Shown here piece after piece: positions 22,867 to 63,992 of a stretch of 64,000 nucleotides of DNA. A program made the translations under genes and the position numbers. A model generated the notes under the pieces. It had not been told where the DNA came from. It did no database searches and saw only the letters and a list, made by a program, of their open reading frames with translations. Position 1 is the stretch's first letter. Each line of letters starts with the position of its first letter. Origin of the DNA: Thermoplasmatota archaeon (GTDB lineage: Archaea; Thermoplasmatota; E2; DHVEG-1); the NCBI GenBank assembly GCA_030619765.1, contig JAUXAU010000007.1, positions 465 to 64,464 of the forward strand, read 5' to 3'.

Positions 22867-23249
22867 AAGAAATGGTAAAAAAAGAAAAAGGAATTTCATT
22901 CAACCTTATCTCACGCCGGAAATTAAATGATCTTTCATCCTCAGAAAAACTGAAGTATATACTGAAAGAAGTCAGACAGGGAAGGATCTTGGTGCTTGAA
23001 CATGGTCTTACACCAACAGAACAAACAGCCCTTATAGAGAATACTATGAAAGAGATAGACCACGACACATTTATTGGTATCGAAATGGGAGGATATGAAG
23101 AAGAGAAAACTAGCTTCTTCCAAAGGGTTTTTGGCGTAATAAAAAAACCACGTATGACTGTAATAGGGCCTGCGCATCTTCTAAAAATGGTCCATAAAGA
23201 TCATGATAAAATAGAAACCACGATAATATCTGGTAAAGGAGTAAGCTAA
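22863..23249 (+). CDS. DUF2073-like archaeal protein
   Basis: ATGA-coupled to the GTPase gene. The size (128 aa) and the position between the GTPase and the Zn-ribbon protein match the conserved archaeal triad as I recall it. Confidence 0.6.
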   Translation: MKEMVKKEKGISFNLISRRKLNDLSSSEKLKYILKEVRQGRILVLEHGLTPTEQTALIENTMKEIDHDTFIGIEMGGYEEEKTSFFQRVFGVIKKPRMTVIGPAHLLKMVHKDHDKIETTIISGKGVS

Positions 23250-23788
23250 TGCCTCACCAGTGTCTTAAATGTGGACATGTATTCGAAGAAGGATCATCTC
23301 AGTTGTTAAAAGGATGTTCAGATTGCGGTGGAAATCGATTTTTCTTTACAAAACAACCGTTAGATGAAAACGAGAGAAATATTATTAGCAGCGAAGTAAA
23401 TAAAGACATAACCTCCAAAATAATGGAGACATTAATGGAGAAAAATAAAGACGGCATTGACAAATCAGGAAAATGGGTTACAATAAAACCAAAAGAAATT
23501 CGAAAGATAATCAATGAGAAAATAATCGAAAACGGAGATGAATTAAAAACAGAGAAACAAGAAACTATAGAGCCGATAGACGATGAAAGACGCAGGGCAA
23601 TCATTGAAAAAATCAAATCCGAAGTAGATGAAATTGATTCTCCAGAGACAATAGGCATTGAAAAACCTGGTAAATATAGTATAGACATAAAGGGCCTTTT
23701 AGAGGAAGAACCCATTATTATACAAAAAGATGGTTCGTATACCATCCATTTACCTTCTGTTTTTAAAATGATTGATAAAAAGAAATAA
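23249..23788 (+). CDS. Zn-ribbon-containing protein (DUF2072/COG3364-like)
   Basis: N-terminal CLKCGHVF...GCSDCGG zinc ribbon, then an acidic/charged region. Translationally coupled to the preceding gene. Confidence 0.65.
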   Translation: MPHQCLKCGHVFEEGSSQLLKGCSDCGGNRFFFTKQPLDENERNIISSEVNKDITSKIMETLMEKNKDGIDKSGKWVTIKPKEIRKIINEKIIENGDELKTEKQETIEPIDDERRRAIIEKIKSEVDEIDSPETIGIEKPGKYSIDIKGLLEEEPIIIQKDGSYTIHLPSVFKMIDKKK

Positions 23789-29500: not shown

Positions 29501-32500
29501 AAATGATTCAGATAGCAATAGTCTCTATAATTCAATTGATGTTAATCTGACAATCAACGCATCTGGTCTATCAAGTCCTGCCGACTTTATCTTAGAAGGA
29601 CCGTTCTATAAAGAAAGCAGCGGTTTTGAACCCCCAACAGATATCACCTGGACAGATAAAGAAATAAATGACATCAGTGGTATTCAAACAGTCACAGTAT
29701 CTTTTAGTGGAAGTCTTATCAACGCCAAGCAAGTCAATGGACCATATTCAGGTTGGCTTGAATTACGTGAACAAAGTGATTGGGGACCAGGTAGAAGTCT
29801 TGATTACGCTGAATTCCAAACTGCACAATACAGCTATACTGATTTCGAACTTCCAGTGGTCTCATTTAGTAATATTACTGATTATGGGAACGATACCAAC
29901 GTGAATGGACAATATGACTATTTAACTATCAATGTCACCGTGAATGTTACTCAGACGGGTAACTATTCACTTAATGGTGGACTCCATAAGGTCGTTTCCC
30001 ATGGGTACTGGGATGAATGGTATTGGATAACGGGAACAGGAACCGAAGTCTTCAATCTTGTCCAGGGAACCACCCCTACGCTTGTATTGAATTTCAAAGG
30101 AAGTGAGATCTATGAAAAGGGCTATGATGGGCAATTTAAATTCCATATAGAGATATTCGACAATGACAATTATGTACGGGTAAGTGAAAAGGAAAACAGT
30201 ACATCCAGGACCTATTACTATACTGAGTTTGAGACACCATCAGTATATTTCAACAAATCATGGATGAATCAAAGTGGGCTGCATGACTATATTAACAGTA
30301 GCACATACTTAACAATTAACGCCTCAATAGTCGTAGGAGAAGGTGCATTTGGTGGAGAAACAAGAACCTATGATATTCACGGAGGCCTCCATTTCACAGA
30401 AAATATTGGAGGTGATTTTGGAGATTTCATCACTGGAGCCGGGCAGGAAATTGAACTGAGCGAAGGAGAAAACATCATCCCATTGAACTTCAATATCGGA
30501 GACATATCTGCGGAGAATAGTTCATACAACGGTACCTTTGTTGTTGGAATAGGCTTTAGTGAAAGAATTGGAGGATGGATAGGTCCAGATATCGATAATT
30601 ATCATTATTATTCAGCGAGTTATAATGTCAGTTCTGATTTCCCCGATCCTCCGATATCAATGACAGTCATGAATGATAGCGTCATAAGTAATGGGGATTA
30701 CTTGAGAATTTTGGTAAATATTACAACTACTTCAGATGAATATGCAAATCATACCTATGATATCCATGGTGGTATCCACTACGTCGAGAATAACGATTGG
30801 TTCTTTATCGCAGGGATGGGACAACAAGTAACGCTCAACTATGGGACTAATCTTATCAATCTTGATTTCAGTGGAATGGAAATTGCAGCAAGTGGAAAAA
30901 ATGGGCCCTATTCATACTGGATAGGCTTGGATCGGCTTCCAAACTATGAGATGATTGCGAATAAGGAAGGACAAACCAGTAATTATACCACGGCTAATTT
31001 TACATCCCCAAGTATACAGTTTGGTAATTCACAAAACTTCACTGATTTCACAAATGAAACCGATTATCTGACAGTTCAAGTACAGGTGATCGTCAACCAA
31101 AATGGCACTTATCACATCGGCGGTGGTATCCACTGGATTGAATATCAAAATGGTTGGGACGACTGGCGGTTCATCACTGGTACAGGAAATGAATATACCC
31201 TTAGCCAAGGAACATACAATTTATCTATAAACTTCGATCAAGGTATGATACGCGACGCTCTTCAAGTAAACAATTACGCTGGTATTTTGAAAGTGCATAT
31301 TGGTATAGAGAACGCGTCGACCTGGCAACATATCGCGAATGCAGAGTATGATACAAGTCCATACAGTTACTCTAATTTCAGTGCATCTGCCGTGAGTGTC
31401 GTTTCAGCAACTGAACAAATAGATGTGAACGGCGATCTCATCGTGAATCTTACCTTAAACGTATCAACCTCTGACACGTATACGATCCATGGTGGGGTTC
31501 ATTGGGTTGAAACCACCAATGGGTGGGATAACTGGTGGTTTATCACAGGTACTTGGGATCAATATATATTAGGTTCCGGCGAAACAAATCAATTATTGAC
31601 GTTCAACGGCGGTGAAATATATAATAGCCTGCAAGATGGGCCATACAAGATATGGATTGGTGTCGAGAATACCACGACCTATCAGTTGGTTGCGTCTACT
31701 GAGTTAGAAACCTCCTCATATAATTATACGGATTTTGCTGCTGCAGCACCAGGAGTACGTATTGTTAGAGAAAACATGACTGATGGAACTGTTGATTATA
31801 TGAATGGATCTTATCTAACGGTGAATGTAAGTTTGCATGAGACAAGCAATGGAACCTATTGGTTGGATGGCGGATTACACAATAGTAACTGGAACTGGAT
31901 CACCGGTACTGGGGATCAAATCACTGTAGTTGAAGGAGATAATATTGTACCTTTGAATTTTAACGCTGGTGACATCTATTCAAGTGGATACGATGGACCG
32001 TACAAAGTCTGGATAGGGTTGAGAAATACCACAACTTGGTCTGATGTCGATCATTATGAGTATACTACTCAGAGTTACACTTCTAGTCAAGCACCTCCTC
32101 CACCAATTCAATTTGAATCAATGAGTGATGGACAATGTGACTATTTGAATTCTTCTTATATTACGATCAATGTGACATTAAATGTGTCTTCAGATTCCTA
32201 TGCAGATACTTATGATCTACATGGCGGTATAAACTATGTAGATTCCAATGGGTGGTGGCAGTTCCTAACGGGAGGAGGAAACTGGGTTTATCTTTCAAAC
32301 GGAACAAATAACATGTCTTTGAATTTTAATGCAGGTGAAATACGCTCAGGCTTACCAGATGGATACAATGATAATTTAGAAGTATGGATGGGATTAAGTG
32401 ATATCAATACTTGGAATGAAATCGGACACAAGGAATACACAACACAGCAATACAATAAGAACGATCTCCCTGGACCACAGATGACTATGTCGGTAACAGG

Positions 32501-34292
32501 AGATTACATCAATGAATCAGTGAACGGTTCTTATTTTACTGTTAATTTAACAATCAACGTTTCTTCAGGAAATTCTGGAACCTATGACGTCCATGGAGGA
32601 GTCCACTATATTGATACATCAAGAGGTTGGGACGAATGGATGTTTATCACCGGAACCGGATCTCCAAGAACGCTTTCTGAAGGAACTAATTCTATAGCTC
32701 TCAACTTCAATGCTGGAGAAATTTATAACATGTTACAACAAAAAAGTTACAATGGAAAACTCACTATCTGGACCGGTGTCCAAAATATTACAACATGGGA
32801 CCATATTGCCCATGCAGAATATACTACCTCTAGTGACTATTCAACAAACAGTTTCAGTCCACCTGGACTTACAATAGAATGTACAAGTGATTACAACAAC
32901 GCAACCGATTATCTGACAGTAAACGTTACTATCAATGCATCTTCAGCGTATCAAAATACTTCGCTAGATGTCCATGCAGGTCTCCACTATAAACAGGGAT
33001 GGGAATGGCGATTCATAACAGGTTTTGGAACCCAGATCAATTTAACAAATCAAACAACAACAATACCGATCAATTTCAACGGTGGAGCAATACGAAGTAG
33101 TGAACAATCTGGCCCTTATGACGTATGGGTTGGTATCAGTCAAGAAGGGCAATGGGATGACATCGCTCACGATGATAATACTACAAATAGCTATGATTAC
33201 ACTGATTTTGCAGCACCCCCTGTAAGAATAATTAATAACACTGATTATGCAAATGGTACTAGCTATTTAACAATAAATGTTACGCTAAATGCCTCACAAA
33301 CAGGAACCTACTTCCTTGAAGGAGGTCTCCACTGGATTGATGGCTACCAATGGAAATGGATAACATGGGAAGGAACAGACATCAACATAACCTCAACAGG
33401 GGAACAAACGTTCCCGCTAAACTTCGATGGAAAACAAATAGCGAATGCTCAAAATGACGGATGGAATGGAGAAACTCTTGTAGCCTGGATCTGCGTGATA
33501 AACACTACTACATGGAATGAAATCAATAGAGTTGATGAATATACAACTGGAAGCTACTCACCAAACGACTTCTCTGCATCACCAGTAACATTTAATGGAT
33601 CGATACAGGATTCCAGAGTCAACACATCAGGTGGAGGGACACCATATGATCAACTAAGAGTAATCGTACCTATCACTTTAAACTCTTCAGGTAACTACGA
33701 GATATTCGCCGGATTATTTGACGTTGGCAATAACACGCTCATCACCACCGCCTCAAAAACATTTACCAGTGGTATTAATGTAACACTCAACTTCACTGGA
33801 ACAAAAATCTATAGAAAACACTTCAATGGAACGTTTGAATTCAGAGCGAAAATATTCGACACTGATTCATGGTTCGAATGTGACAACATGATCAACACTA
33901 CAGGTTACCACAACTATACTGATTTTGAATCAGCAACACGAGAAGCAACAATTGCCGGTAGCTACAGCAACTACACCAATCAAAATGGAGATGTTGTAAT
34001 CAACGTATCCATAAATGTCACACAAAATGAAACCAAATATGAACTTTATGGGGATCTATTTAACGATTCAGGTGCAAAATATATTACTAACGCCAAGAAC
34101 ATCACCTATTTCGGCAATCAGACTGGAACAGTAACAGCTCAGCTTGTTTTCAATGGATCAACAATAACAAATTCTTCAGGTGAAGCACCATATAAACTTG
34201 CATATCTGAGACTTTCTATTTATAACACAGTAGAAACTATTTGGGAAGAACTAGATCAAAAGAATAACCCCTATGAGAATATCAATCCGTGA
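26541..34292 (+). CDS. Giant secreted surface protein (2583 aa): right-handed beta-helix (NosD/PbH1-like) N-terminal region, CarboxypepD_reg-like domains, then about 13 tandem beta-rich modules
   Basis: Signal/anchor LLSTLIVTVMLLMSFVGMLS. GNYTNIQDAIDNASNGDTVYVYNGTY and repeated NN[ST]...N[ST]ANSNN..GI turns indicate a parallel beta-helix. N-x-S/T sequons are extremely dense. The start could be the second ATG at 26547. Confidence 0.9.
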   Translation: MWMLFKKEFLVNSRLKKKLLSTLIVTVMLLMSFVGMLSSFTITVGAKTLTVKTDGSGNYTNIQDAIDNASNGDTVYVYNGTYSGGGSDAVVYINKSITLQGENAGNTIINASGVYYGIMINISGAMVYNFTITKATTDGIYLNNSDNIEIRNCTIYNNSDGIHLESSNNNTIIGNTANSNTINHGIWLWESCNNTVINNTANSNNEGGICLDFSSNNTLTNNTANSNNHSGIELFQESHNNTVTNSTANLNNDSGICLQDSSNYNTIAGNTVNSNNANGIFLDSSNNTLIYNNYFNNTNNAGDNGNNTWNINKTSGTNIIGGSYLGGNYWHDYAGSDTNDDGLGDTLVPYNCSDNIPNGGDFFPLVLPGGGPGSGGVTMVRGNVTDGDGSPLSDVYLEMFKQGPGDWFENSSQYTNSTGEYSFNLSVENAGAGMYDLNAFLDGYVSYGNWSVFVSDGQTIWIDIELPQLFVNYSYIYGRINSSDSGEILNNSQIVVLDTDFTHMMEGMGKGDMEYTNNMTYNNESGYFMIPILYKSIYNVIAFKDGYYAAFSNPSINVSSEGTIYWNNFSLNPAQPDNLSMVVEFSDLDDVKITVNRSIVAESPLIRFALDFMPGVGNNNQNVSQTEVAGYLQMMGSYGPTVNVSLDEDSSGGGGEEGPPDFLQIYVSLKLDGSNLDLYKSGTYNANLDNVVNTSVSSTETIYYNATFYLTLDGPILNQTNHTFNVSSEYKNLINTNINVTFGNFYNVSQVVTNQTNNSVITTTSTAIINPGNGSADELAYALLSLILNASTVSLPIFEEPTWHTTDEWELNQTDNNGTSTIKYIVDGKPLKQWDRNQYTIGDLSTSYLCYYIGEETSTTYETKYVTLNDIDWIVLNDQMEIDYLINDLEFPLYNSKTWSTRSWWGENVTATVIDCYEAKTTQKGTFSCVKVNYTNASSSVVGQEWYSPDINFLVNRTRYDDAGVVSILDLKEYSLAPYIQAVTIYANDSDSNSLYNSIDVNLTINASGLSSPADFILEGPFYKESSGFEPPTDITWTDKEINDISGIQTVTVSFSGSLINAKQVNGPYSGWLELREQSDWGPGRSLDYAEFQTAQYSYTDFELPVVSFSNITDYGNDTNVNGQYDYLTINVTVNVTQTGNYSLNGGLHKVVSHGYWDEWYWITGTGTEVFNLVQGTTPTLVLNFKGSEIYEKGYDGQFKFHIEIFDNDNYVRVSEKENSTSRTYYYTEFETPSVYFNKSWMNQSGLHDYINSSTYLTINASIVVGEGAFGGETRTYDIHGGLHFTENIGGDFGDFITGAGQEIELSEGENIIPLNFNIGDISAENSSYNGTFVVGIGFSERIGGWIGPDIDNYHYYSASYNVSSDFPDPPISMTVMNDSVISNGDYLRILVNITTTSDEYANHTYDIHGGIHYVENNDWFFIAGMGQQVTLNYGTNLINLDFSGMEIAASGKNGPYSYWIGLDRLPNYEMIANKEGQTSNYTTANFTSPSIQFGNSQNFTDFTNETDYLTVQVQVIVNQNGTYHIGGGIHWIEYQNGWDDWRFITGTGNEYTLSQGTYNLSINFDQGMIRDALQVNNYAGILKVHIGIENASTWQHIANAEYDTSPYSYSNFSASAVSVVSATEQIDVNGDLIVNLTLNVSTSDTYTIHGGVHWVETTNGWDNWWFITGTWDQYILGSGETNQLLTFNGGEIYNSLQDGPYKIWIGVENTTTYQLVASTELETSSYNYTDFAAAAPGVRIVRENMTDGTVDYMNGSYLTVNVSLHETSNGTYWLDGGLHNSNWNWITGTGDQITVVEGDNIVPLNFNAGDIYSSGYDGPYKVWIGLRNTTTWSDVDHYEYTTQSYTSSQAPPPPIQFESMSDGQCDYLNSSYITINVTLNVSSDSYADTYDLHGGINYVDSNGWWQFLTGGGNWVYLSNGTNNMSLNFNAGEIRSGLPDGYNDNLEVWMGLSDINTWNEIGHKEYTTQQYNKNDLPGPQMTMSVTGDYINESVNGSYFTVNLTINVSSGNSGTYDVHGGVHYIDTSRGWDEWMFITGTGSPRTLSEGTNSIALNFNAGEIYNMLQQKSYNGKLTIWTGVQNITTWDHIAHAEYTTSSDYSTNSFSPPGLTIECTSDYNNATDYLTVNVTINASSAYQNTSLDVHAGLHYKQGWEWRFITGFGTQINLTNQTTTIPINFNGGAIRSSEQSGPYDVWVGISQEGQWDDIAHDDNTTNSYDYTDFAAPPVRIINNTDYANGTSYLTINVTLNASQTGTYFLEGGLHWIDGYQWKWITWEGTDINITSTGEQTFPLNFDGKQIANAQNDGWNGETLVAWICVINTTTWNEINRVDEYTTGSYSPNDFSASPVTFNGSIQDSRVNTSGGGTPYDQLRVIVPITLNSSGNYEIFAGLFDVGNNTLITTASKTFTSGINVTLNFTGTKIYRKHFNGTFEFRAKIFDTDSWFECDNMINTTGYHNYTDFESATREATIAGSYSNYTNQNGDVVINVSINVTQNETKYELYGDLFNDSGAKYITNAKNITYFGNQTGTVTAQLVFNGSTITNSSGEAPYKLAYLRLSIYNTVETIWEELDQKNNPYENINP
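29470..34289 (+). repeat. Tandem array of about 13 divergent protein modules of about 125 aa inside the giant ORF
   Basis: Recurrent pattern: YLT[IV]NVT.NV...GTY...GG[LIV]H......W.[FW]ITG.G......G.N...LNFN[GA].EI......GPY.[VI]W[IV]G..N..TW......YTT..Y...DF..P. The repeat is visible only at protein level. Confidence 0.8.
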
Positions 34293-43505: not shown

Positions 43506-45677
43506 TTATCCTTGTCTAGAGAGGAGTTCGTCTACCTGTTCTTCTATGTCGCCTATGTTTTTTAATTTACTCGTTTTTTCCCCGGGTGTTGTTGTTTCCT
43601 TCTCTCCTTCAATTACGGTGTATTCGATTTTATCTTCTATTTGACGGAGTTGTTCCATGTAAACTTCTACATCTTGTTGTATATTTTGTAGTAGGTTCTT
43701 CGTTTGACTGATCATTTCTACTGTATCTTTATCACTGACACGTGTTCTTAAGGATTCCCTAATCGATGGAGGTTTAATAATCTCTTCACGTTTTTTAAAT
43801 ATCTTATATTTCAAATAGTTATATCTTTTAAAGTATATGGAAATAATTAATATGATGAACAGTATCACTATGGTTATAGGTATCCAGATAATAAGTGGTA
43901 ATATTTCTTCTTCGTAAGGGGACATAGATCCATCTACTGTGTTGTAGATGTAATCCCATGTGCCATCTCCGTTTTTATCGATGAGATAGTGTTCATTGTG
44001 TTTTTCTACTGCTGTTGTGGTATCGCTTATGGGTTCGTAGAGGATGTCGTAGACGCCATCTTGGGTTACATCTACGAGATAGTATGTTTTTCCAGTGATG
44101 TAAACTTTTTTTGCATCCGATCCATTCTTTGGATTTGATCCAAGACGTGTTTCGTTTACATCTCTGAGGTTGTCATCATCGTCGTCTACATCTCCTGTGT
44201 ATTTTCCGGATGGTGCATCCTCATCTGGTATGTTATCGCCATCTGTATCAGTTGGGTAACTGTTCGGGTCCTTTGTATCTGTTTCATAGGATATTTCCAT
44301 GTCGTCGTTATAGCCGTCATTGTCATCATCGGTATCCGAAGAATCAGGTATGCGATCGTTATCTATGTCTAATGGATAGTTATCTAGGTCATTTGGATCG
44401 GTACCATATTGTTGTTCCTCTTCATCTGACCATCCATCTCCATCTGTGTCTATGAACATGGTGTCAATTGAGAATGTAACAGTGGCGTATCTGTTCGTTG
44501 TGTTGTCAGTGCCTAATGCTCTTACATAGAATGTGTGAACGCCATCTGAAATATTATTTGGTGATGTCCAGCTTGTTGTTTCGCCGACATATGTTTCTGA
44601 ACTATTGTCTATTTTGACATAGTATCCTTTCACGCCTTTGCTATATACTGAGGGACTCCAGGCAAATGAAGGCGTATCATCCCACATTGTGGTAACATGT
44701 CTTACATCGGCAGGTAATGTTATTTCATCTGGGAGTATCATAGAGGTTAGCGGATATCTATCAGTATTTTCCTCAGATATTGTATACGGTGTGTCCCCAA
44801 GTCCATCTCCATCTATATCTATACCTGAGTATTTGTCCCAATAGTTTCCTTTGAAGCCGTTATCCCATGTGTTGTTGCCTTGAGCGTTTGCGTCTACATC
44901 GTTTTTCCAGAAGTTGTTAAGATAGGCAAGATTATTATTTGAGTTTTGCCAGATATAGATACCTAAGTCATTAACATAAATATTACAATTAGATACTAGA
45001 TTGTCATATGATTCAATGCGAATGTCAACAGCAATTTCGTTGTTAAATATGTTACAGTTTATTATCTCATGGTCATGAGATCCTATTAGAACTAAAACAC
45101 CAACAGTGAATCCATATATGTTACAATCCTTAATTATATTGTTTTGTTCTTGCAACTCGATGCCAGTACCGGTTGAACCAATTCCGACAATGTCACAATT
45201 GGAAACAACGACAGAGGAAGCTCTTATGCGAATGCCAATATTTTTCTGGGCGGCTTCTATAATTACCTGAGAGATATTACACCAATCACTATCCGGTTTA
45301 ACATATATCGCATATTCCCCTGGATTGGTCAATTTAAGATTACGGATATCCACATTTGAACTATCTAAGATGAAGCCGTTATTGCCTCCGCAGTCGATTA
45401 TGGTACTGGCTTGGTTATCTCCGACTATAGTTAATTTTTTATGTATCTCTATGTTGTTTTCTCTATAGACGCCTTCTTTTATTCCAATAATGTCATTTGG
45501 GTTGGCGTTGTCGATAGCATCCTGAATGCTGGTGTAATCTCCATTTCCATTGATATCAACTATTAAAGTTGCTTGAGGTATAGGAGGAACGGATTGTACT
45601 GTGGATGAAAGAGTTGTGAATATGAATAAGAACGTTGCTAAGAGAGTAATTACTTGGACTCCTAGTTTCCTGTTCAT
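43506..45677 (-). CDS. Beta-helix adhesin-like protein with TSP3-like Ca-binding Asp repeats, TM helix and a cytoplasmic coiled-coil tail
   Basis: Signal peptide. GDYTSIQDAIDNANPNDIIGIKEGVY plus PbH1-like turns. DTDGDGWSDEEE / DIDNDRIPDSSDTDDDNDGYNDD / DTDGDNIPDED. TM LPLIIWIPITIVILFIILIISIYF, then about 100 charged residues. Confidence 0.8.
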   Translation of the reverse strand: MNRKLGVQVITLLATFLFIFTTLSSTVQSVPPIPQATLIVDINGNGDYTSIQDAIDNANPNDIIGIKEGVYRENNIEIHKKLTIVGDNQASTIIDCGGNNGFILDSSNVDIRNLKLTNPGEYAIYVKPDSDWCNISQVIIEAAQKNIGIRIRASSVVVSNCDIVGIGSTGTGIELQEQNNIIKDCNIYGFTVGVLVLIGSHDHEIINCNIFNNEIAVDIRIESYDNLVSNCNIYVNDLGIYIWQNSNNNLAYLNNFWKNDVDANAQGNNTWDNGFKGNYWDKYSGIDIDGDGLGDTPYTISEENTDRYPLTSMILPDEITLPADVRHVTTMWDDTPSFAWSPSVYSKGVKGYYVKIDNSSETYVGETTSWTSPNNISDGVHTFYVRALGTDNTTNRYATVTFSIDTMFIDTDGDGWSDEEEQQYGTDPNDLDNYPLDIDNDRIPDSSDTDDDNDGYNDDMEISYETDTKDPNSYPTDTDGDNIPDEDAPSGKYTGDVDDDDDNLRDVNETRLGSNPKNGSDAKKVYITGKTYYLVDVTQDGVYDILYEPISDTTTAVEKHNEHYLIDKNGDGTWDYIYNTVDGSMSPYEEEILPLIIWIPITIVILFIILIISIYFKRYNYLKYKIFKKREEIIKPPSIRESLRTRVSDKDTVEMISQTKNLLQNIQQDVEVYMEQLRQIEDKIEYTVIEGEKETTTPGEKTSKLKNIGDIEEQVDELLSRQG

Positions 45678-55757: not shown

Positions 55758-56002
55758 CTACCCTCCAGATGGTAGTTATAATAAAAAGTTTGTTTATAAA
55801 CGTTCCTTTACCTACAAGAATAAAATCTATAAAATTAACAAATTATAATAGCTGCTAAATGGTCGTATAGACGAAAAATTAAAAAAGATTAATAGTATGT
55901 TTGCACATTATTATCATACACTTCTCTAATAAAATTATCATGTATACCAGGGTTGAGGAGGGATACGTGGTATGTATTTCTTCCAAAAAGGAAGGTCGTA
56001 AA

Positions 56003-57502
56003 ATGGACGAGTTTAAAAATGATGAACTTGAAAAAAAAATAATTGAACTAAAAAATAGAGAATCAGAGTTGAAGAATAAAATACAGGAGATTGGCCAGAT
56101 ACATTTAGAGATGAATAATAAACAGGAGGAAATAGAATCATTGAATACAGATCTAGAGACAAGGAACAGGATAATTGAAGACCTTAAAGGACAGTTAGCA
56201 GAAAGACAAACAATGCTTGTAGAAACAACCGGAGCTGTCGAGAGAATACATACCGATCTAGAACAAAAACAAAAAGAGATAGAAGCAAAGAACGAAGAAT
56301 TACGATCAGCCAGATCAGAACTAGAAAACAAGCAAGAAGATTGTAACTCTTTGAACGCAGATATAGAAACAAGGAACAGGATAATTGAAGACCTTAAAGG
56401 ACAGTTAACAGAAAGACAAACAATGCTTGTAGAAACAACCGGAGCCTTCGAGAGACTACAAAAAGAGATGGAGAAAAAAAATAACGAGATTGACTGGACA
56501 AGAACCAATCTATCCGATAAAGAAAATGAATTTGAAAAAGCACAGCATAGTCTACAAATGACGGAGGAGGAACTGCACAATAAAGAAGAAATAAAAAGAT
56601 TAAAAGAGAATCTAGAAAACAAAAATAAAGAATTGAGCTTGATTAATCAACAACCTGAAAATAAAGAAATTGAAAAATCTCAGTTACCGATCGATCTAGA
56701 AAAAAGTAAGAAAGATTTAAGAAGATCCGAAGAAATAAAACTTGTAAAACAACAATTTAGAGACATACAAAATGAGACGGCTCGATTACAAACTGAACTT
56801 AAAACAATACTTGAAGGCATTGACATAAATAATATAGATACTGGGTCACAAGAAATAGAACACGAGGAATTGAAGAAAGAACTAAAGGCGAGTAAATCTG
56901 CATTAAATTGGTTTAACGCAGAGTTAGAAGCAAAACGAGATGAGATGAGATTAAAAGAAAATGAGCTCAGTATGTTAAAGAACCGATTAGAAAGTAGAAA
57001 CACTGAAATCAAACAGATGAAAACGGAGCAAATTCGAAGTCAACCTGAACTAGAAAAGGAGCAACAAGAGATAGAAACATTTAATGAAGCCCTAGACACA
57101 AAAAATGCGATAATAGCACAAATGAGTAAACAGATAACAGAAAAACAAGAAGTGATTTTAGAAAAGACAAAAACTGCTGAAGAAATGCAAAAACAGCTAG
57201 ATCAAAACAATCAAGAGCTAATTCAAAGGACGAACGACGTATCACAATTACAAAAAGAGTTAAAACAGGATCGTGAAAATCTAGAATCCATTACTAGCAC
57301 ACTTTGCAATAAAGATAATCTCTTGGAGCAATTACAACAACATCTGAAACAAAAAAATCAGGCGGAATCAGAATTCGGACAAGAAACTGATGGTGAAGAA
57401 AATATACCTTGGAAGGATAATCTGAGAATTTATAATGAAATCGATAAAAAGCTAGTAGACAATGATCTTAAAACAAAAAAATTAAAAGAAGAATTGGAAT
57501 AA
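56003..57502 (+). CDS. Long coiled-coil protein (SMC-arm-like, no ATPase motifs seen)
   Basis: I prefer the ATG at 56003 (MDEFKNDELEKK), preceded by AAGGAAGG. Uninterrupted E/K/Q/L heptad-like sequence with an internal 70-aa duplication. Confidence 0.65.
   Translation: MDEFKNDELEKKIIELKNRESELKNKIQEIGQIHLEMNNKQEEIESLNTDLETRNRIIEDLKGQLAERQTMLVETTGAVERIHTDLEQKQKEIEAKNEELRSARSELENKQEDCNSLNADIETRNRIIEDLKGQLTERQTMLVETTGAFERLQKEMEKKNNEIDWTRTNLSDKENEFEKAQHSLQMTEEELHNKEEIKRLKENLENKNKELSLINQQPENKEIEKSQLPIDLEKSKKDLRRSEEIKLVKQQFRDIQNETARLQTELKTILEGIDINNIDTGSQEIEHEELKKELKASKSALNWFNAELEAKRDEMRLKENELSMLKNRLESRNTEIKQMKTEQIRSQPELEKEQQEIETFNEALDTKNAIIAQMSKQITEKQEVILEKTKTAEEMQKQLDQNNQELIQRTNDVSQLQKELKQDRENLESITSTLCNKDNLLEQLQQHLKQKNQAESEFGQETDGEENIPWKDNLRIYNEIDKKLVDNDLKTKKLKEELE
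56154..56245 (+). repeat. Internal near-identical DNA repeat, copy 1
   Basis: 92 nt with 4 mismatches to 56364-56455. The offset is 210 nt (70 codons, in frame). Confidence 0.9.
56364..56455 (+). repeat. Internal near-identical DNA repeat, copy 2
   Basis: Encodes ETRNRIIEDLKGQL[AT]ERQTMLVETTGA[VF]ER, as does copy 1. Confidence 0.9.
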
Positions 57503-58132: not shown

Positions 58133-58335
58133 CTTATCACTGTTAATTTCAATATTTACTTCATTAAGAATAATATATAAATCTTATTATACAACTGTTA
58201 CCTATTATATTTAAAAATCGGGAGAAAATCAACATCATTTTGATACAAAATTTTCATAGTTAAACGATGTCAGTCTGTTTTTTTGTAATTCAGTGTGTTT
58301 AGATATGATGTTATTTTTTTGAGTGAGAAAATGCC

Positions 58336-58466
58336 GTTTTGTAATTTTTACAGTTTGATTTTCTACCGGGCAAGTTTTATATAGTGTTACTTGAGAACAA
58401 TTTACATGAAAACTATTACCATGCTGTTAAATCGCATGGAAATGAATGAAATGAAGGTGGTAAAAA
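58336..58466 (+). promoter_or_regulatory. Promoter/5'UTR module upstream of the archaellin gene, homologous to 63867-63992 (minus strand)
   Basis: 58336-58408 matches the reverse complement of 63920-63992 at 61 of 73 positions. The match includes TTTTTACAGT[TC]TG, TACCG, a TTTATATA TATA box and CACTTGAGAACAAT. The UTRs share CGC..GGAAATGAA. An extra CAGTCTGTTTTTTT box lies at 58272-58285. Confidence 0.7.
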
Positions 58467-59354
58467 ATGGAAAAGAAATATTTGGAAAGGCTGATAGGAA
58501 AGTACTGTAAAGTCGTCACCAAAGAACCCGGAGAAGAAAGAGCTAGCGTTGTTACTGGCATCCTTGAAGATGTCGACTACAAAGATGGTTTTATTTTAAT
58601 TGATTCTAGTCAGGGATTGGGGTGCCTTAGAATAAGTACCGTCATTGCAATAAAACCAGGAAAGAAAAGAAGAGTGGAAAAAAGAAAAATTAAAGTTGAA
58701 GAAGAAGCAATGGTTGGTATAGGGACTCTTATCGTTTTCATCGCCATGGTTTTAATCGCAGCAGTTGCCGCGAGTGTACTGATTACTACCAGTGAAACAT
58801 TACAGTCAAGAGCGAGAACCGTGGGAACAGCAACCATTCGAGAAGTCTCGGCAGGGGTATCAATTGAATCAATAACAGGATACACAAATGTAAATAAAAC
58901 AAAAATTGAATATATCGCACTCACTGTACGGCCTCGAGCAGGTTCAAAAGATATCGATCTAGGCTTATGCACTTTATCAGTCCTATATGACGATCTAACG
59001 ATTCTCACCTTAAATGAATCTCTCGTACAAACTGTAAATACTGACAACAAAAGTGTCTTTGAGACACCGATAACATCAGGATCAAGCTACACGATATTAG
59101 ATAACACGAGCTCAATAAAATTTGGTGTCATCTCAATTCATGATCCAGATTCGTCAGTCACTACCACATGTGGTATGAACAGCGGAGATCGAATAATCAT
59201 TATTGTAAACCTTAGTGCCATCATAACTGGCCAGGGTGGATTACCACCAAGAGAATCGGTAGAAGGTACATTGACACCAGAAATAGGGATAATGGCCCAA
59301 TACGATACAACTGCACCTGCAGTGTTCTCAAAAAGAATTGTAAATCTATCGTAA
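58467..59354 (+). CDS. arlB: Archaellin (ArlB/FlaB family) with an unusual 81-aa N-terminal extension
   Basis: GIGTLIVFIAMVLIAAVAASVLITTSETLQSRARTVGTATIREVSAGV...GSKDIDL...VEGTLTPEIG is the canonical archaellin. The ORF starts 243 nt upstream at an ATG preceded by GGTGG, and that part encodes an Sm-like-looking domain. Confidence 0.85.
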   Translation: MEKKYLERLIGKYCKVVTKEPGEERASVVTGILEDVDYKDGFILIDSSQGLGCLRISTVIAIKPGKKRRVEKRKIKVEEEAMVGIGTLIVFIAMVLIAAVAASVLITTSETLQSRARTVGTATIREVSAGVSIESITGYTNVNKTKIEYIALTVRPRAGSKDIDLGLCTLSVLYDDLTILTLNESLVQTVNTDNKSVFETPITSGSSYTILDNTSSIKFGVISIHDPDSSVTTTCGMNSGDRIIIIVNLSAIITGQGGLPPRESVEGTLTPEIGIMAQYDTTAPAVFSKRIVNLS

Positions 59355-59383
59355 AAAATACGGCAAAATCCCTTTTTCTTTTT

Positions 59384-60535
59384 TTATTTATTTTTAAATT
59401 CTTTAATAATTGCAATCTCAGCTTTTTTACCGTTAAAAACAGTTGGCCTAGTACTAACCTCTACAACCAATTTATTGCTATCTTTAGTCAAAAACACAGC
59501 CTCATAACCAGAAGAATCAACGCCTTTTAATCTATCCAGATAATACTTCTCAATCTCAAGATAACATTCAGGAGTAATAAAATCAAACAAACTTTTACCA
59601 ATAACTTCATTTATATCATAACCTAGCAACTCAACAAAGGGACGATTTACCTGTTTTAAAATACCACGCTGTACAATGGCAACACAATCTTGAATATTAT
59701 CAATAAATATATAATGCTCACTGGTTTCTTTGCTCGTATTGACATCCAAAGCCAATCTATTATTGCTTTTAGAAGGTTTAACATGAATGTTTTCATCCAA
59801 TAGAGAAATAAAACGTCGTCTGAATAATCTTTCTTCCTGAACAAGATTCTTCCTTCTTTCTTCGATTTCTGCTCCAAGACGGTTTATTTTTCTAGTCTTT
59901 CTTTCAAGTTCTTCCATCATAGTCTTTGCTTGCTGTAAATCGTCATTGATCAATGTCCTAAGGTCAGATAGAGTTTCTTTATGCAGGGTTAATATTTCAT
60001 CAATACCCTCTATCCGGAGAGGTCTATCGACAACCGAAACCTTAGGAGCTTGAGGTTCAACTCTCGCAATGATAGATTTACCCCATGCAATTTTAGTCTT
60101 TAATGGCTCTTTTTTTGGAGTGGCAATAATCTCTGGAAACATCAAAATGTGTTTATGATCTATAACGACAATAACTAATAAACAACCAAATATCAGGTAA
60201 TGAAAAAAATTAGAAATAGCCATCTCTCTACTAGCAATCGCTAATCCTAAACCACCTAGCATTACGCCCGTCGGCAAGAATGAAAAAATGAGATTCTTTT
60301 TACTAACTTTTGCATGAAGATAGGAGTCAAGAACGACTACAATTAGAGATAATAGTATTAAATGCAAATTATTTACTCCAGACAGGACGTAAAAAGGTAT
60401 TAAATCAAATATAAACTCTGGTTCATAAGCTGCTCTAAAAAAGAAAATAAAAACAAATTTAACAAAGATGAATATAGTTATAAACACGAAAAAACAAAGC
60501 GGGAAGTACCAGAAGATATAATTAACCTTTTTCAT
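59384..60535 (-). CDS. Membrane protein with N-terminal TM helices, a coiled coil and a C-terminal PAS domain (no output domain)
   Basis: The first 140 aa carry hydrophobic helices. A coiled coil follows (DLQQAKTMMEELERKTRKINRLGAEIEERRKNL). PAS-like region: CVAIVQRGILKQVNRPFVELLGYDINEVIGKSLFDFITPE...EAVFLTKDSNKLVVEVSTRP. Confidence 0.7.
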   Translation of the reverse strand: MKKVNYIFWYFPLCFFVFITIFIFVKFVFIFFFRAAYEPEFIFDLIPFYVLSGVNNLHLILLSLIVVVLDSYLHAKVSKKNLIFSFLPTGVMLGGLGLAIASREMAISNFFHYLIFGCLLVIVVIDHKHILMFPEIIATPKKEPLKTKIAWGKSIIARVEPQAPKVSVVDRPLRIEGIDEILTLHKETLSDLRTLINDDLQQAKTMMEELERKTRKINRLGAEIEERRKNLVQEERLFRRRFISLLDENIHVKPSKSNNRLALDVNTSKETSEHYIFIDNIQDCVAIVQRGILKQVNRPFVELLGYDINEVIGKSLFDFITPECYLEIEKYYLDRLKGVDSSGYEAVFLTKDSNKLVVEVSTRPTVFNGKKAEIAIIKEFKNK

Positions 60536-61211
60536 AAACTGCTCTCATTATTTTTCCAATATCTGTCTTTTTGATAATATACCGGGTTCCAATTGCAGCT
60601 GCAAACAAGGCTATTAAATCCAAAAGATATGGAGGTATCTCTACAGCTATTGAATTATCTAACCCAGGAATTATAATAATAGTGCCACTTCTGATCAAAT
60701 CCTCAGTGGTGTAATCTAATTGCAATGTTGCTGTTGATCCTCCTCTATCGCTAGCGATAATATTCAAACGTGTGAACCAAGTGGTATGAAAGACAAACAA
60801 TATTTCAAGGTTACATCTGTCTTCTACTGTCTCCACTCCATCTGAATGATTATAGGAGCATTTTTTTGTCAATAGTAAATTATTTTCTTTTGATGTTTCG
60901 CTGAATTCATTTACTTTCTCATATGATGTTAAATCGGCATATTGTTTATAAAGAAATTCAGTTTTTTCCTCGCTAGCATCTTCTAAAACTACGCTAACTG
61001 AGCATATGTCCTCCCAAGAATTGTAATCGGAAATAGTGAGATATATTCTAATAAAATTGTCCTGTTGCACTAAACGTATCATGCTGTATTGTGGAGGAAC
61101 ATTCAGCACTCCTACACCTGCCTGACCAGCATTTGCATTGATAGAAGAAAACGTGATAAACAAGGTTGTTGTTAAAATGGCTAGTGAAAAAATTTTCCAT
61201 CCTTTCTTCAT
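60522..61211 (-). CDS. Secreted beta-rich protein with C-terminal TM anchor (229 aa)
   Basis: Signal peptide (SSINANA/GQ) and C-terminal helix LLDLIALFAAAIGTRYII. I recognise no family. Confidence 0.55.
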   Translation of the reverse strand: MKKGWKIFSLAILTTTLFITFSSINANAGQAGVGVLNVPPQYSMIRLVQQDNFIRIYLTISDYNSWEDICSVSVVLEDASEEKTEFLYKQYADLTSYEKVNEFSETSKENNLLLTKKCSYNHSDGVETVEDRCNLEILFVFHTTWFTRLNIIASDRGGSTATLQLDYTTEDLIRSGTIIIIPGLDNSIAVEIPPYLLDLIALFAAAIGTRYIIKKTDIGKIMRAVYEKG

Positions 61212-61220
61212 TTAGGTGTC

Positions 61221-62564
61221 TTACCTCCTGCGGTGTCTAATCTGAGCAGAAATCATGTATCCTACAACTAAAATAATACATAATGCTACAACGATTGCGG
61301 TAGTGGATATGTTTATCCCTCCAGATATTTCTCGTTGTAGAGGCGGACCTATGGTTATTGATGTAGTGTAAGTCTGTGTTGCTCCCTCTACTGTTAACTC
61401 GTAGGAAATGGTTCCAACCTTGTTTTCTCTAATTGCCTCGACTTTAATAGTCACAGCATATTCTGATATATTTGTAGAAGTGATTGTTAAGGGTGTTCCC
61501 TCTTGATCCTCACCAGAGACCTTCAGTACAGCCACATTTACTTCGTCCCCTGAGACGTCTAATATTGCCTTTCCTTCTCCAGAAATGTAAACAGTTAAAT
61601 ACTCGATATCTCCTTCATTCATTTCAAGACTTTCTTCGTATTGAAAGACAATACTTGTCCCCTGGATTGGTTGGATTTTATAGTTACTATGTCCCACGGA
61701 TATTTTCAGATCAGCTGCGTTAATTTCAATGAATGTTTCAAATGTGATCACAGCAGTGGTAATAATTAGAGAGCTTGGAATAGATCCACTTACACCTCCT
61801 GATACCTTTAATATTCCAGGTTGCCATGAACCTGAATGCAGTGTTATATTGTGGTTAAAAGTAGACGAAGGAGTAAGTTTTTCACTAGAATTAGTTACTT
61901 CAATTTGACTATTATATGTTCCATAATCAACTGCAATAAATAATGGAATATTGCCTACATTCTCAATTATGAATTCATCGTCTCCCGGAAGATCCATCTC
62001 TTCGAAGGGGTTTACTTTAAATCTAATTGTATCAGCATGGCTTCTTGCAAGCCCAACCATTGGTTTTTCCAATACCACATTTGCAGTATGTATTTGATCG
62101 GTGTCCCTGTAAATTTCTAACGTCCAGTTTTCATAATAACTTGTAATTTCAGGTAAAGTATCTTTTACGCCTAGGCAAAAGGAAAATGTGTTACCAGTCT
62201 TTTGACAGCTTGTATCTTTGATATAAGAGTATCCGTCATATTCTTTTATATCAGTCCATTCCTGGCTGTTTGCATTATATCTCCATTCATAATAGTTAGA
62301 TTCATTTCTTTCTCCTATAGAAGGCATAGAATCCCCTTTGTAGAATCTCAGGATTAATTCTTGGAAAACCTGGTCATCAAGTGTTACGTTTATGTAATGC
62401 CAAACACCAGCAACAATTACTGGGTTGCCAAAACGTGTCTTTGCTAGTTCACCTATCATATGTATCTCAACAGTAATGTCGTCAACAGCGGTAACAGTTG
62501 AAAATATTGGTAAAAAACTAATCATAAACAGTACAAAAAAAATCACATAATTTTTAATACCCAT
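61221..62564 (-). CDS. Secreted multi-domain beta-rich protein with C-terminal TM anchor (447 aa)
   Basis: Signal peptide. Ig-like segment IRFKVNPFEEMDLPGDDEFIIENVGNIPLFIAVDYG. C-terminal helix TAIVVALCIILVVGYMI followed by RHRRR. Confidence 0.55.
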   Translation of the reverse strand: MGIKNYVIFFVLFMISFLPIFSTVTAVDDITVEIHMIGELAKTRFGNPVIVAGVWHYINVTLDDQVFQELILRFYKGDSMPSIGERNESNYYEWRYNANSQEWTDIKEYDGYSYIKDTSCQKTGNTFSFCLGVKDTLPEITSYYENWTLEIYRDTDQIHTANVVLEKPMVGLARSHADTIRFKVNPFEEMDLPGDDEFIIENVGNIPLFIAVDYGTYNSQIEVTNSSEKLTPSSTFNHNITLHSGSWQPGILKVSGGVSGSIPSSLIITTAVITFETFIEINAADLKISVGHSNYKIQPIQGTSIVFQYEESLEMNEGDIEYLTVYISGEGKAILDVSGDEVNVAVLKVSGEDQEGTPLTITSTNISEYAVTIKVEAIRENKVGTISYELTVEGATQTYTTSITIGPPLQREISGGINISTTAIVVALCIILVVGYMISAQIRHRRR

Positions 62565-62705
62565 CCCGTCACCTCATAGTATTAAATTATAAAATATATC
62601 CAACTGTATTTCTTATCTTTTAAAGTCTATTAAAGTTTTTGTATTAACGGAAATTTACTATAGAAATGAAAAAATACCTTCAACTGGAATTTTTTATTGC
62701 TCCAT

Positions 62706-63866
62706 TTATGTTTGTGTTCTCAGATGGTAATAAATCGTTGCATTATACTCCCCTGGTAACTGAGCAAGCGGAATAGTACACCTGTACTCTACATCATTAG
62801 TTGTTAAGCTTGTATCATTGTTTTCTGCGCCTTGATAAGTTGGTCCGTCGGTTCCCCACAGATACAATGGTCCAGTTCCCGGGAATGGAGTTACTGAGGT
62901 TAGGTTTCCACCTCTCAATGAAACTGTTGTATTGGACATATTTGCAGTAGGATGTGATTTATGAAAGAATGTGTCCACATCAACTGATAAAGAGTATTTT
63001 ACATTTGACCGTGTATTAATAGTAATGTTAGAGTCCGCTGTTGCATTTTCACCAGGGAATCCTTGGATAGTTAGTATTCCAGCACTTACTATTTCTGTAT
63101 AAGAATTAACTCCAAACTCGTCAATTATTGATACTGTACTCGGTCCTGATGCATCTTCTCCACTGTCGGTAACTGATATTTTGAAATTCCAGGACCAAAT
63201 GTCATCGATAGCATTGGTTGTATTGTCCCAGACACCGTCTCCAGGTGCATATCTGAATTGATAACCAGGTATAAACGAAAATGTTAGGCGATGACATTCA
63301 GTGGAATCAGGACAATCATCTGGAACTGTTACATCTGTTTCGGTAAAGCTTCCCTTTGTTACTTCATCATCAGGAAACAACATAGTGTACTTTGCAGTTC
63401 CCGTGGTATTCTCATACCGCAAAAACATGTTTAAATTTCCACCTAGATTCCCGCTATTATTGTATGTCGTACTATCGTCGCCATTGTCAAGCCAGGCAGT
63501 GATATCTATATATTCTATATCATCCCATCCTTGATCACTTCTGATGCTGATGCAAAATTTATATTTCCGATTAACGTCGATTTGTGAATTCAACTTAGAA
63601 ACACCTGTTGCGGTTTGAAAATCATACCAATTAATTATCGGTTTAGTTTCCAAAACCGGTGGTCCTGGCCCTGGTCCAGGTCCTGGAGGTTCTGGTTCAG
63701 GTATCGGAGTTGTTATACTAAGGTATGAACTGCTATGATAGTATGACGTTATATCTCCTGCATTTGCGATTCTTACTATAGGGATCACAGCCATCAGACC
63801 TGTGGATAAAGTAGAAAACAATAGTAAAACTAATAAAAAAATAGTACAAATTTTTCTCTTTACCAT
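62706..63866 (-). CDS. Secreted protein (386 aa) with a PEPEPPGPGPGPGPP linker, no anchor
   Basis: Signal peptide, a Pro/Gly linker, then a beta-rich Asn/Thr/Asp-rich body. It is the first gene of a four-gene minus-strand operon. Confidence 0.55.
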   Translation of the reverse strand: MVKRKICTIFLLVLLLFSTLSTGLMAVIPIVRIANAGDITSYYHSSSYLSITTPIPEPEPPGPGPGPGPPVLETKPIINWYDFQTATGVSKLNSQIDVNRKYKFCISIRSDQGWDDIEYIDITAWLDNGDDSTTYNNSGNLGGNLNMFLRYENTTGTAKYTMLFPDDEVTKGSFTETDVTVPDDCPDSTECHRLTFSFIPGYQFRYAPGDGVWDNTTNAIDDIWSWNFKISVTDSGEDASGPSTVSIIDEFGVNSYTEIVSAGILTIQGFPGENATADSNITINTRSNVKYSLSVDVDTFFHKSHPTANMSNTTVSLRGGNLTSVTPFPGTGPLYLWGTDGPTYQGAENNDTSLTTNDVEYRCTIPLAQLPGEYNATIYYHLRTQT

Positions 63867-63992
63867 TGTTTTTCACATCTCTTCATTTCCCGCGGTTTCT
63901 TAGATACGACAAGTATTATCGTGTATATTGTTCTCAAGTGACAATATATAAATCTTTGGCGGTAAAAAAACAGACTGTAAAAATAACAAAAC
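63867..63992 (-). promoter_or_regulatory. Promoter/5'UTR module upstream of the 386-aa gene, homologous to 58336-58466
   Basis: See 58336-58466. The TATA box TTTATATA (reverse complement of 63945-63952) lies about 80 nt upstream of the ATG at 63866. Confidence 0.7.

Follow-up and report, generated by a model that had tools for sequence, protein, structure and literature searches.

A conserved archaellin-promoter module is duplicated before a secreted-protein gene within the archaellum locus of an uncultured archaeal order

The 64,000-nt stretch of contig JAUXAU010000007.1 analysed here (the window) comes from an archaeal lineage which we take to be Thermoprofundales, also called MBG-D (for Marine Benthic Group D). 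It carries an archaellin gene, arlB, and, on the opposite strand, a gene for a secreted protein, p386, followed by genes for two anchored surface proteins, p447 and p229, and a PAS-domain protein. Both arlB and p386 are preceded by a copy of one ~130-nt module, which appears from its sequence to be the order-wide promoter and 5' leader of arlB. The original prediction for this region had drawn attention to the module, and its count of 61 identical positions out of 73 between 58336-58408 and the reverse complement of 63920-63992 was reproduced exactly, as were its gene calls and their lengths. In a repeat search, the inverted repeat 58336-58412 / 63916-63992 is the longest of the window (77 nt, 83%), and the two upstream regions align locally with a score of 55, against 11.8 +/- 1.9 (maximum 22) for first-order Markov resamplings with matched dinucleotide frequencies. 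Two boxes, one of 22 nt upstream and one of 13 nt following TATA, occur at the two module sites and nowhere else in the window. In line with this, a weight matrix built from 95 unique modules, all from loci other than the window, gives the two sites 88.4 and 81.7 bits, and no other position in the window more than 12 bits. The weaker similarity of the untranslated regions (UTRs) up to both start codons is real but modest, being reached by 6 of 2000 shuffles. The coding sequences of arlB and p386 are, as had been claimed, unrelated (hhalign probability 0.1%), which rules out a partial gene duplication that included coding sequence.

The anatomy of the module was derived from 24 aligned modules and from ungapped consensuses of 72 unique archaellin-type and 12 unique p386-type copies, with coordinates counted from the first T of the TATA box as 0. 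The layout is fixed across modules and runs from an upstream box through a proximal box, a transcription factor B recognition element (BRE), the TATA box and a core to an initiator. Specifically, the upstream T-tract box spans -31 to -19 (31-19 nt upstream of TATA) with the order-wide consensus TTTTTnCAnTTTG, that is TTTTTnCAnTYTG, and the proximal box at -14 to -7 reads TCTAACGG in archaellin-type and TTACCACC in p386-type copies. A BRE-like AAGC and then TTTAWATA follow in the consensus, and the position of BRE and TATA is unchanged in all archaellin loci retrieved by protein similarity. The 15-nt core, TGTYAMTTGASAACA, fills +9 to +23 between TATA and the predicted start, the consensus around it being nTGTyAmTTGAsAACA (+8 to +23). 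The pyrimidine-purine initiator, TAyACryG at +25 to +32, is followed by a leader of ~60 nt, and its C and G are invariant in 24/24 aligned modules and 70/70 UTRs. The positions of these elements in the window are collected in Table 1.

Table 1. Features of the archaellin and p386 regions of the window (positions on the window; SD, Shine-Dalgarno sequence)
Feature	Position	Strand	Detail or basis
Divergent archaellin-like gene p207, 207 aa	57509..58132	-	PF01917 E = 2.8e-15
Upstream box, archaellin copy, TTTTTACAGTTTG	58345..58357	+	consensus of 72 + 12 unique modules; alignment
Proximal box, archaellin copy, TCTACCGG	58362..58369	+	abuts BRE; archaellin-type consensus TCTAACGG; position fixed relative to TATA in all modules
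BRE-like GCAAGT and TATA box TTTATATA (58376-58383)	58370..58383	+	read from sequence
Core, archaellin copy, TGTTACTTGAGAACA	58385..58399	+	imperfect dyad TGTT-N7-AACA; anchors the 23-nt scan pattern
Initiator-like TTTACATG (consensus TAyACrTG)	58402..58409	+	predicted start ~58406-58408
Archaellin 5'UTR hairpin, stem CCAUGCU / CGCAUGG, 7-nt loop	58419-58439	+	covariation; alignment A5
Archaellin gene arlB, 295 aa	58467..59354	+	PF01917 E = 9.6e-29, residues 82-278
p447, p229 and 383-aa PAS genes	59384..62564	-	9-nt gap, then 14-nt overlap
Predicted promoter of the 447/229/PAS genes: AAAAAC + TTTAATAG (62640-62627), SD GAGGTGA	62565..62650	-	block invariant in 6/6 loci
T5 run	62670..62674	-	32 nt after the p386 stop codon
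p386, 386 aa	62706..63866	-	Sec signal peptide, PGPG linker, two beta-sandwich domains; ten N-glycosylation sequons
Initiator-like ATATACACG and ~55-nt p386 leader	63867..63927	-	no stable hairpin, no GGTGG SD
Core, p386 copy, TGTCACTTGAGAACA	63929..63943	-	sequence; weight matrix
TATA box TTTATATA, p386 copy	63945..63952	-	preceded by BRE-like CAAAGA
Proximal box, p386 copy, TTTACCGC	63959..63966	-	p386-type signature TTACCRCCAAA
Upstream box, p386 copy, TTTTTACAGTCTG	63971..63983	-	sequence; alignment

At both sites an 8-nt A/T-rich TATA box has a purine-rich BRE directly upstream, the arrangement of an archaeal promoter that depends on TATA-binding protein and transcription factor B. The usual archaeal distance from TATA to the start, about 23-27 nt, fits the position of the module's initiator, and transcription starts are predicted near 58406-58408 and 63920-63922. 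From these starts, the core would lie at about -21 to -7 and the upstream boxes at about -61 to -37. Such positions are those of classical repressor (core) and activator (upstream boxes) sites in archaea (PMC5512572, introduction).

Scanning one genome per species (185,579 species) with a 23-nt pattern, TTTAWATANTGTYAMTYGASAAC, returned 20 loci, 19 of them in Thermoplasmat-named metagenome-assembled genomes (MAGs) and one a chance match in a Bacteroidota MAG. CP070724.1 (2.32 Mb), the nearest of the complete genomes, holds exactly two exact pattern matches, at arlB and at the p386 orthologue, and the complete genome CP070712.1 (1.82 Mb) holds one, at arlB. The pair in CP070724.1 and the two weight-matrix sites of the window support a promoter with its leader and not a dispersed repeat, the outcome that had been named as fatal to the original prediction. 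Apart from a few matches without flanking module similarity, the copies sit 84-110 nt before a start codon. The downstream gene encodes archaellin in most of these loci; in L013, L015 and L026 (loci are cited by number) it encodes a p386 homologue of 47-60% identity, and the module-bearing orthologue in CP070724.1 is 83% identical. Protein similarity searches gave a consistent picture: the core is present, with at most one mismatch to that of the window, in every archaellin locus so fetched (L001, L002-7, L008, L009, L010), and the archaellin gene of L033, which adjoins p386, is an exact fit to the scan pattern. Of the p386 genes retrieved by protein similarity, those of the window, L001 (382 aa) and L033 carry the module, and the standalone p386 homologue of L032 (CP070798.1) has a recognisable but degraded one with 5 core mismatches. 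No exact match to the core pattern occurs in the whole CP070798.1 genome, so the archaellin promoter there would have diverged or be absent.

The metagenome scan gave 94 matches on 93 contigs. The downstream gene encodes archaellin at 78 matches, a p386-family protein at 9, a homologue of the C25 (gingipain-type) peptidase whose gene has the module in L029 at 1 and a 238-aa protein rich in sequons at 2; one is too short to classify and 3 are unexplained. Taking both pattern scans together, 16 contigs or genomes besides the window have a p386-homologue gene with the module, and the pairing of an archaellin gene with a gene of this family recurs across species in which the 386-aa proteins are 47-73% identical. 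Occurrence of the module before a C25 protease gene or the 238-aa glycoprotein gene is rare. At L029 (5298, minus strand) and L048 (8754, minus strand), the complete module including a leader hairpin precedes a gene for a surface protein of 1213-1230 aa, which in L029 comprises a C25 peptidase domain (PF01364, E = 6.7e-46), its propeptide, PKD domains and a C-terminal anchor. At L049 (237) and L110 (4646), the complete module, again with the hairpin, precedes the gene for the 238-aa protein, which has 15 N-glycosylation sequons. A further metagenomic contig, L058, carries two archaellin genes ~4 kb apart, each with a full module (8080 and 12227), indicating that the whole promoter-gene unit was duplicated there.

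Both copies of the module are under purifying selection. Over 68 nt (-35 to +33), the archaellin module of the window matches that of L008 at 52/68, L009 at 53/68 and L010 at 48/68 positions, where four-fold degenerate sites are 45%, 43% and 40% identical, respectively; the module is thus kept at 71-78% identity where synonymous sites have fallen to 40-45%. The p386 module matches L001 at 67/68 (four-fold sites 83% identical) and L033 at 60/68 (56%). Besides the elements shared by both types, p386-type modules of distant genomes (L013, L026, L052, L114) have the type-specific signature TTACCRCCAAA in common, from which we infer that the duplication is old and that both copies have been constrained since. 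Within the window, the archaellin copy is nearer to the p386 copy (56/68) than to its L001 orthologue (48/68), which hints at sequence exchange between the two window copies. The same figures are what favours reading the repeat as a by-product of recent duplication or gene conversion, or as a mobile or dispersed repeat, of no regulatory meaning. That reading is largely refuted and we give it almost no weight: a complete genome holds two copies, which stand at a fixed distance from the start codon and are not flanked by terminal repeats; the module is retained, with its type-specific signature, before p386 homologues of 47-73% identity; and its conservation is far above that of synonymous sites.

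The product of p386 belongs to a family of 360 homologues, all annotated as hypothetical or unnamed proteins, and those with an organism name come only from Thermoplasmat-named MAGs. Its AlphaFold model (pLDDT 76) has a signal peptide, a disordered PGPG linker and two beta-sandwich domains, and Foldseek finds only generic tandem beta-sandwich matches (CfaB pilin fusions, AgI/II and MSCRAMMs; TM-score <=0.35) from which no specific function is derivable. Neither p386 nor p447 nor p229 has a Pfam or NCBIfam match. Of the genes that follow, p447 encodes a protein with a signal peptide and a C-terminal transmembrane anchor, p229 one with a signal peptide and a C-terminal hydrophobic anchor, and the third a 383-aa protein with several transmembrane segments, a coiled coil and a PAS domain but no output domain. 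The p447/p229/PAS trio recurs in L001, L002, L008, L015 and L033.

The original prediction had the second module drive all four genes as one operon with short gaps or overlaps throughout. The last three genes are indeed so packed, but 141 nt separate p386 from p447, and the trio has a BRE/TATA block of its own. This block occupies the ~85 nt before the p447 ATG in all six loci that reach the region, and beyond it the loci abruptly cease to be similar. In L033, p386 is separated by an IS240-family transposase gene from the p447 block, which is retained downstream; in L001 (CP070724.1) the p386-p447 gap widens to 484 nt. Standalone p386 homologues are found in L032 and L034, and in L013 and L026 a gene array beginning with the PAS gene ends in the module-bearing p386 paralogue. 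Additionally, the T5 run behind p386 is a candidate archaeal intrinsic terminator, oligo-T being known in this role (PMC10665913). Taken together, the separate p447 promoter, the transposase, the widened gap, the lone p386 genes, the altered gene order and the T5 run argue that the module would drive p386 only and that the 447/229/PAS genes would be a separate unit transcribed from their own promoter, with some read-through from p386 into the trio still conceivable.

Comparison with relatives places these genes inside the archaellum locus. In relatives without the cluster (L009, L010, L020, L024), the order is a 207-aa archaellin-like gene, arlB, a convergent PAS gene, and then arlC, D/E, F, G, H, I, I2 and J. 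In CP070724.1 the order is arlC, a CBS gene, PAS-525, a gene for a 2127-aa LamG protein, p376, p382 (with module), p446, p229, PAS-380 and arlB. From the two orders, the surface-protein cluster appears to be an insertion between arlB and the PAS/arlC-J genes, and is, as the CP070724.1 gene order has it, physically embedded in the archaellum locus. The window itself, as had been noted for ArlH, ArlI and ArlJ, contains no arlC-J homologue detectable by tblastn or Pfam, and by analogy with its relatives the motor genes would lie some 8-10 kb beyond its end. arlC-J form a separate, divergently oriented unit in L009, L010, L020 and L024 and lie ~16 kb from arlB in CP070724.1; arlB and arlC-J do not share a single promoter, a convergent PAS gene following arlB. 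The CP070724.1 locus (L128, 1-17087) also reveals two PAS paralogues in the p386-bearing clade. PAS-525 adjoins CBS/arlC and corresponds to the single PAS gene of the other relatives, and PAS-380, which closes the inserted cluster, to the 383-aa gene of the window. The inserted block in that genome looks ~14 kb long and includes the 2127-aa LamG/DUF2341 protein gene.

From the observed duplication, uniqueness, purifying selection and recurrence across species, we consider it probable, if by no means certain, that the archaellin-promoter cassette was duplicated in front of p386 and that arlB and p386 are switched on and off together by the same factors. Shared control of the two genes is a reasonable reading because their pairing recurs across species whose p386 proteins are only 47-73% identical. 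The original proposal of a shared regulator is to that extent retained, common control of arlB and p386 being the part that uniqueness, selection and recurrence favour; its extension to the 447/229/PAS genes is dropped in view of their own promoter. Mechanistically, the paralogous cassette before p386 would keep the cis-elements of arlB so that the same trans-acting factors read both promoters, and the filament subunit and p386 would therefore be switched together. The upstream boxes occupy the place at which activators bind in archaea, and the core, situated between TATA and the start, would be either a repressor site that blocks recruitment of RNA polymerase or a specialised initiation region.

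For the activator, a homologue of EarA would be the obvious candidate in this lineage. In Methanococcus and Pyrococcus, activation of archaellin promoters by EarA is proven (PMC5512572, PMC10665913); its sites are TACATA just upstream of the BRE in Methanococcus (PMC5512572, PMC10665913) and A(C/G)(C/G)TACA(T/C), 9 nt upstream of the BRE, in Thermococcales (PMC10665913). EarA-family (PF07381) genes occur 7 kb (L008) and 2.5 kb (L010) from arlB and 1.5 kb downstream of the standalone p386 gene of L032, and also in L129. A linkage count for EarA over the fetched loci (3 of 128) is uninformative, as most of them are short. EarA has 1669 homologues at E <= 1e-5, the best 120 of the 1669 all being at least 67% identical. 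In L032 (CP070798.1, 9800-13016), the standalone p386 homologue also adjoins a two-component system, 1.5 kb upstream of earA. In each module copy of the window, one TACAG stands 16 nt upstream of the BRE, and the order-wide consensus at this place is only TnCAnT. An EarA homologue may be regarded as a reasonable candidate for the activator of the module, but the site architecture that defines EarA promoters is lacking.

The module resembles the EarA-activated fla/arl promoter of M. maripaludis and Thermococcales in being a first-archaellin promoter with BRE/TATA and conserved elements immediately upstream, in the presence of an EarA-family gene in the lineage (near arlB in L008 and L010, near p386 in L032) and in that arlB is listed as the most strongly expressed unit (PMC5512572, PMC10665913). 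It differs in that its best-conserved element lies downstream of TATA, in that arlB is here monocistronic, with a convergent PAS gene separating it from arlC-J, and in that the cassette also stands before secreted-protein genes unrelated to the archaellum, which is undescribed for EarA. The Arn network of Sulfolobus acidocaldarius, in which ArnR/ArnR1 control the arlB promoter, likewise has an archaellin promoter with dedicated cis-boxes, and is similar in concept in that its regulators have effects on other surface structures too; it is a system of a different phylum, with membrane-bound, unrelated regulators and unrelated box sequences (PMC6396743). CsmR of Haloferax volcanii is reported to be one regulator that links archaellum genes with other cell-envelope traits, a parallel to an archaellin regulon extending past the arl genes, but is a haloarchaeal factor from a lineage that lacks EarA (PMC13286277).

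Several observations weigh against common control of arlB and p386. The p386 gene of L034 keeps an upstream region of only weak, partial similarity, and a second L001 p386 paralogue (376 aa) has no recognisable module. No earA homologue is found in the 64-kb window by tblastn or Pfam, and neither published EarA motif lies upstream of the module's BRE. The p386 leader of the window has no hairpin (folding z = -0.01) and resembles the archaellin leader weakly. The genome-wide count of two is one of exact matches to a single degenerate pattern, so that diverged members such as that of L032, with 5 mismatches, escape it. Start sites, co-expression and the identity of the regulator are predictions from sequence. 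Finally, strong selection to express abundant secreted proteins at a high level could keep a good promoter conserved with no specific regulator.

This last point leads to a rival account in which the cassette would be a strong constitutive promoter for TATA-binding protein, transcription factor B and RNA polymerase, copied before genes for bulk products (the filament subunit, secreted glycoproteins and a protease) and conserved for strength alone, with phased T-tracts giving intrinsic curvature and with BRE/TATA and the initiation region at their optimum. Its downstream genes all encode secreted or surface proteins that are plausibly abundant, T-runs recur every ~10 nt upstream of TATA, no transcription-factor site can be assigned in the module, and the promoter of the neighbouring p207 gene has an identical BRE/TATA, AAGATTTATATATT, but not the remainder. 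We nevertheless think this account rather unlikely. The core and the upstream boxes are absent from all other promoters of the window, including those of other giant surface proteins, and the core pattern has only the two exact matches in a 2.3-Mb genome. Moreover, ~45 near-invariant positions outside TATA persist across the order, which strength does not normally require, and arlB is regulated in every archaeon studied (PMC5512572, PMC10665913, PMC6396743). Control by common factors thus remains the reading we favour.

The archaellin gene has two further features of its own, one in its leader RNA and one in its protein. The identity of the protein is clear: top Foldseek matches of the model are the archaellum filaments 7ofq, 5z1l, 8rh5 and 5o4u (E = 1e-12 to 1e-17), and its 2079 homologues are led by "Thermoplasmatales archaeon" SCGC AB-540-F20, SG8-52-1 and similar MAGs, which belong to Marine Benthic Group D, now Thermoprofundales (PMC9585477). 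The first 83 residues (58467-58715) comprise a leader of ~80 residues, made up of a conserved domain of ~65 residues and a basic linker, and the junction to the mature subunit. The junction is of class III type, EEEA↓MVGIGTLIVF (arrow, junction), with (D/E)(D/E)x(A/G)↓xVGIGTLIVF across homologues. A usual class III leader is short (~5-26 residues) and positively charged, ending in G with K/R at -2; here, acidic residues precede a small residue at the junction. The N-terminal domain is modelled with one helix and five strands (pLDDT 82-85) in an Sm/SH3-like fold, with local Foldseek matches to Hfq, LSm and Sm proteins and a weak Pfam match to the RimP C-terminal SH3 domain, and it is present in all listed archaellin homologues. 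An internal translation start at Met81 was rejected because this residue is not conserved, and the leader domain is therefore genuinely fused to archaellin. A 26-residue archaellin leader in Oxyplasma has already been called unusually long (PMC12448462), and no report of a folded archaellin leader domain was found in the literature looked at. In a Guaymas Basin lineage (L022, 757-987; also L050, with L055 similar), the N-terminal domain forms a stand-alone 76-aa open reading frame under a full archaellin-type module, followed by a phosphofructokinase-like gene and no archaellin domain; it would be either what is left of an archaellin that was deleted or a small protein in its own right.

In the arlB leader, a 7-bp hairpin is followed by a purine-rich tract and then the SD GGTGG at 58456-58460. 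Across 70 distinct archaellin leaders, 88% of the cells of this stem are paired, compared with 19-38% in slid controls, and double changes number 56 against 16.9 in shuffles, with 0/500 shuffles as high. Three pairs switch between A-U and G-C or between C-G and U-A, and G-U wobbles are present, which points to the sense RNA. It belongs to no Rfam family, its support being the covariation count of this analysis, and it is a candidate for a new cis-regulatory or stabilising RNA element. Equivalent hairpins are present in p386-type leaders of L013, L026, L052 and L121 and in the C25-type leader of L029.

These observations open the way to a post-transcriptional account, in which a common RNA-binding factor would act on the hairpin and purine-rich leader of archaellin, p386-family, C25 and 238-aa mRNAs and set their stability or translation, similarity of the promoters being secondary. 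The factor might even be the cleaved Sm-like leader domain of archaellin. The covariation with its wobbles, the equivalent hairpins and the modelled Sm/Hfq-like fold are in favour of it. Nevertheless, the p386 leaders of the window, L001, L015 and L033 lack the hairpin and yet keep the untranscribed part of the module almost perfectly; the best-conserved block, from TATA to the start, is itself predicted to be untranscribed; and RNA binding by the Sm-like domain is a supposition. We therefore regard this account as improbable. An extension of it, very unlikely in our estimate, would make the cassette a small transcriptional and post-transcriptional surface-protein regulon with the archaellin's own leader as feedback sensor. 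Processing by the prepilin peptidase would release the ~80-residue Sm/Hfq-like domain into the cytoplasm, where it would bind the 5'UTR hairpin of archaellin mRNA, an equivalent of which p386, C25-protease and 238-aa mRNAs carry in many genomes. In this way, the cell would couple the production of the filament subunit, and of co-regulated adhesin- or protease-like proteins, to export. In Bacillus subtilis, the structured 5'UTR of flagellin mRNA is the target of a post-transcriptional homeostasis, Hag-FliW-CsrA, that is coupled to subunit export. If the feedback existed, it would be an archaeal analogue of this system built from unrelated parts; Hag-FliW-CsrA is bacterial, with unrelated proteins, whereas here a hairpin and an Sm-like leader domain are all that is seen, from sequence and model. 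With the p386 leader devoid of the hairpin, what arlB and p386 share in this genome is in essence the untranscribed promoter, and the common control that we favour would here be transcriptional, the covarying hairpin having been lost from the p386 leader.

Next to arlB, the divergent 207-aa gene had been described as pilin or ArlF-G-like. It encodes instead a distant archaellin-like protein, and relatives have separate ArlF and ArlG genes. Its promoter has its own TATA box on the minus strand near 58180-58187 and lies outside the module family; the segment is kept in relatives and differs from the module after the TATA box. A further box, CAGTCTG(T)n (CAGTCTGTTTTTTT), reported between the two genes does exist, but lies at 58271-58284, one base off the position first given, and was rejected as a conserved element since it is kept only in relatives of ~95% identity. 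The neighbour of p207 encodes a 533-aa coiled-coil protein (55901-57502) with internal repeats of ~167 nt (56117-56283, 56327-56493), and a coiled-coil gene stands at the same position in L001, L002, L010 and L033.

Elsewhere in the window, Rfam 15 has no match at gathering score, a tRNA scan found nothing, and a sigma-70 promoter and terminator scanner, a tool not applicable to archaea, returned counts equal to those of shuffles. The second-longest inverted repeat (26681-26746 / 45505-45570; 66 nt, 76%) lies near the 5' ends of two large, oppositely oriented open reading frames, 26541-34292 and 43506-45677, the latter with beta-helix/NosD Pfam domains, and is probably a shared N-terminal coding segment and not a regulatory element. 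At 22201-23788, a GTPase gene is followed by the genes of the origin-associated proteins OapB and OapC, a hint that a replication origin is close by; just upstream are genes for a tyrosine recombinase (18420-19319) and a PIN-domain protein.

A promoter cassette on an archaellin gene that defines a regulon is of a known kind; what is new is this architecture and the fact that, in an uncultured order, the cassette has spread within the arl locus to lineage-specific secreted proteins. Thermoprofundales count among the uncultured archaea that are most abundant in marine sediments, and to our knowledge nothing is known about their gene regulation. The cassette provides a sequence-defined handle on their motility regulon, and the archaellin gene adds two unreported features, a covarying 5'UTR hairpin and a very long folded leader. 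The compact, strongly conserved promoter and leader may also be a possible part for heterologous expression. Moreover, the cassette predicts that the filament subunit would be controlled together with a lineage-specific secreted Ig-like protein and, in some genomes, with a gingipain-type protease, of the enzyme class thought to underlie the protein-degrading lifestyle of Thermoprofundales. If this co-control is true, swimming or attachment would be linked to feeding in these archaea.

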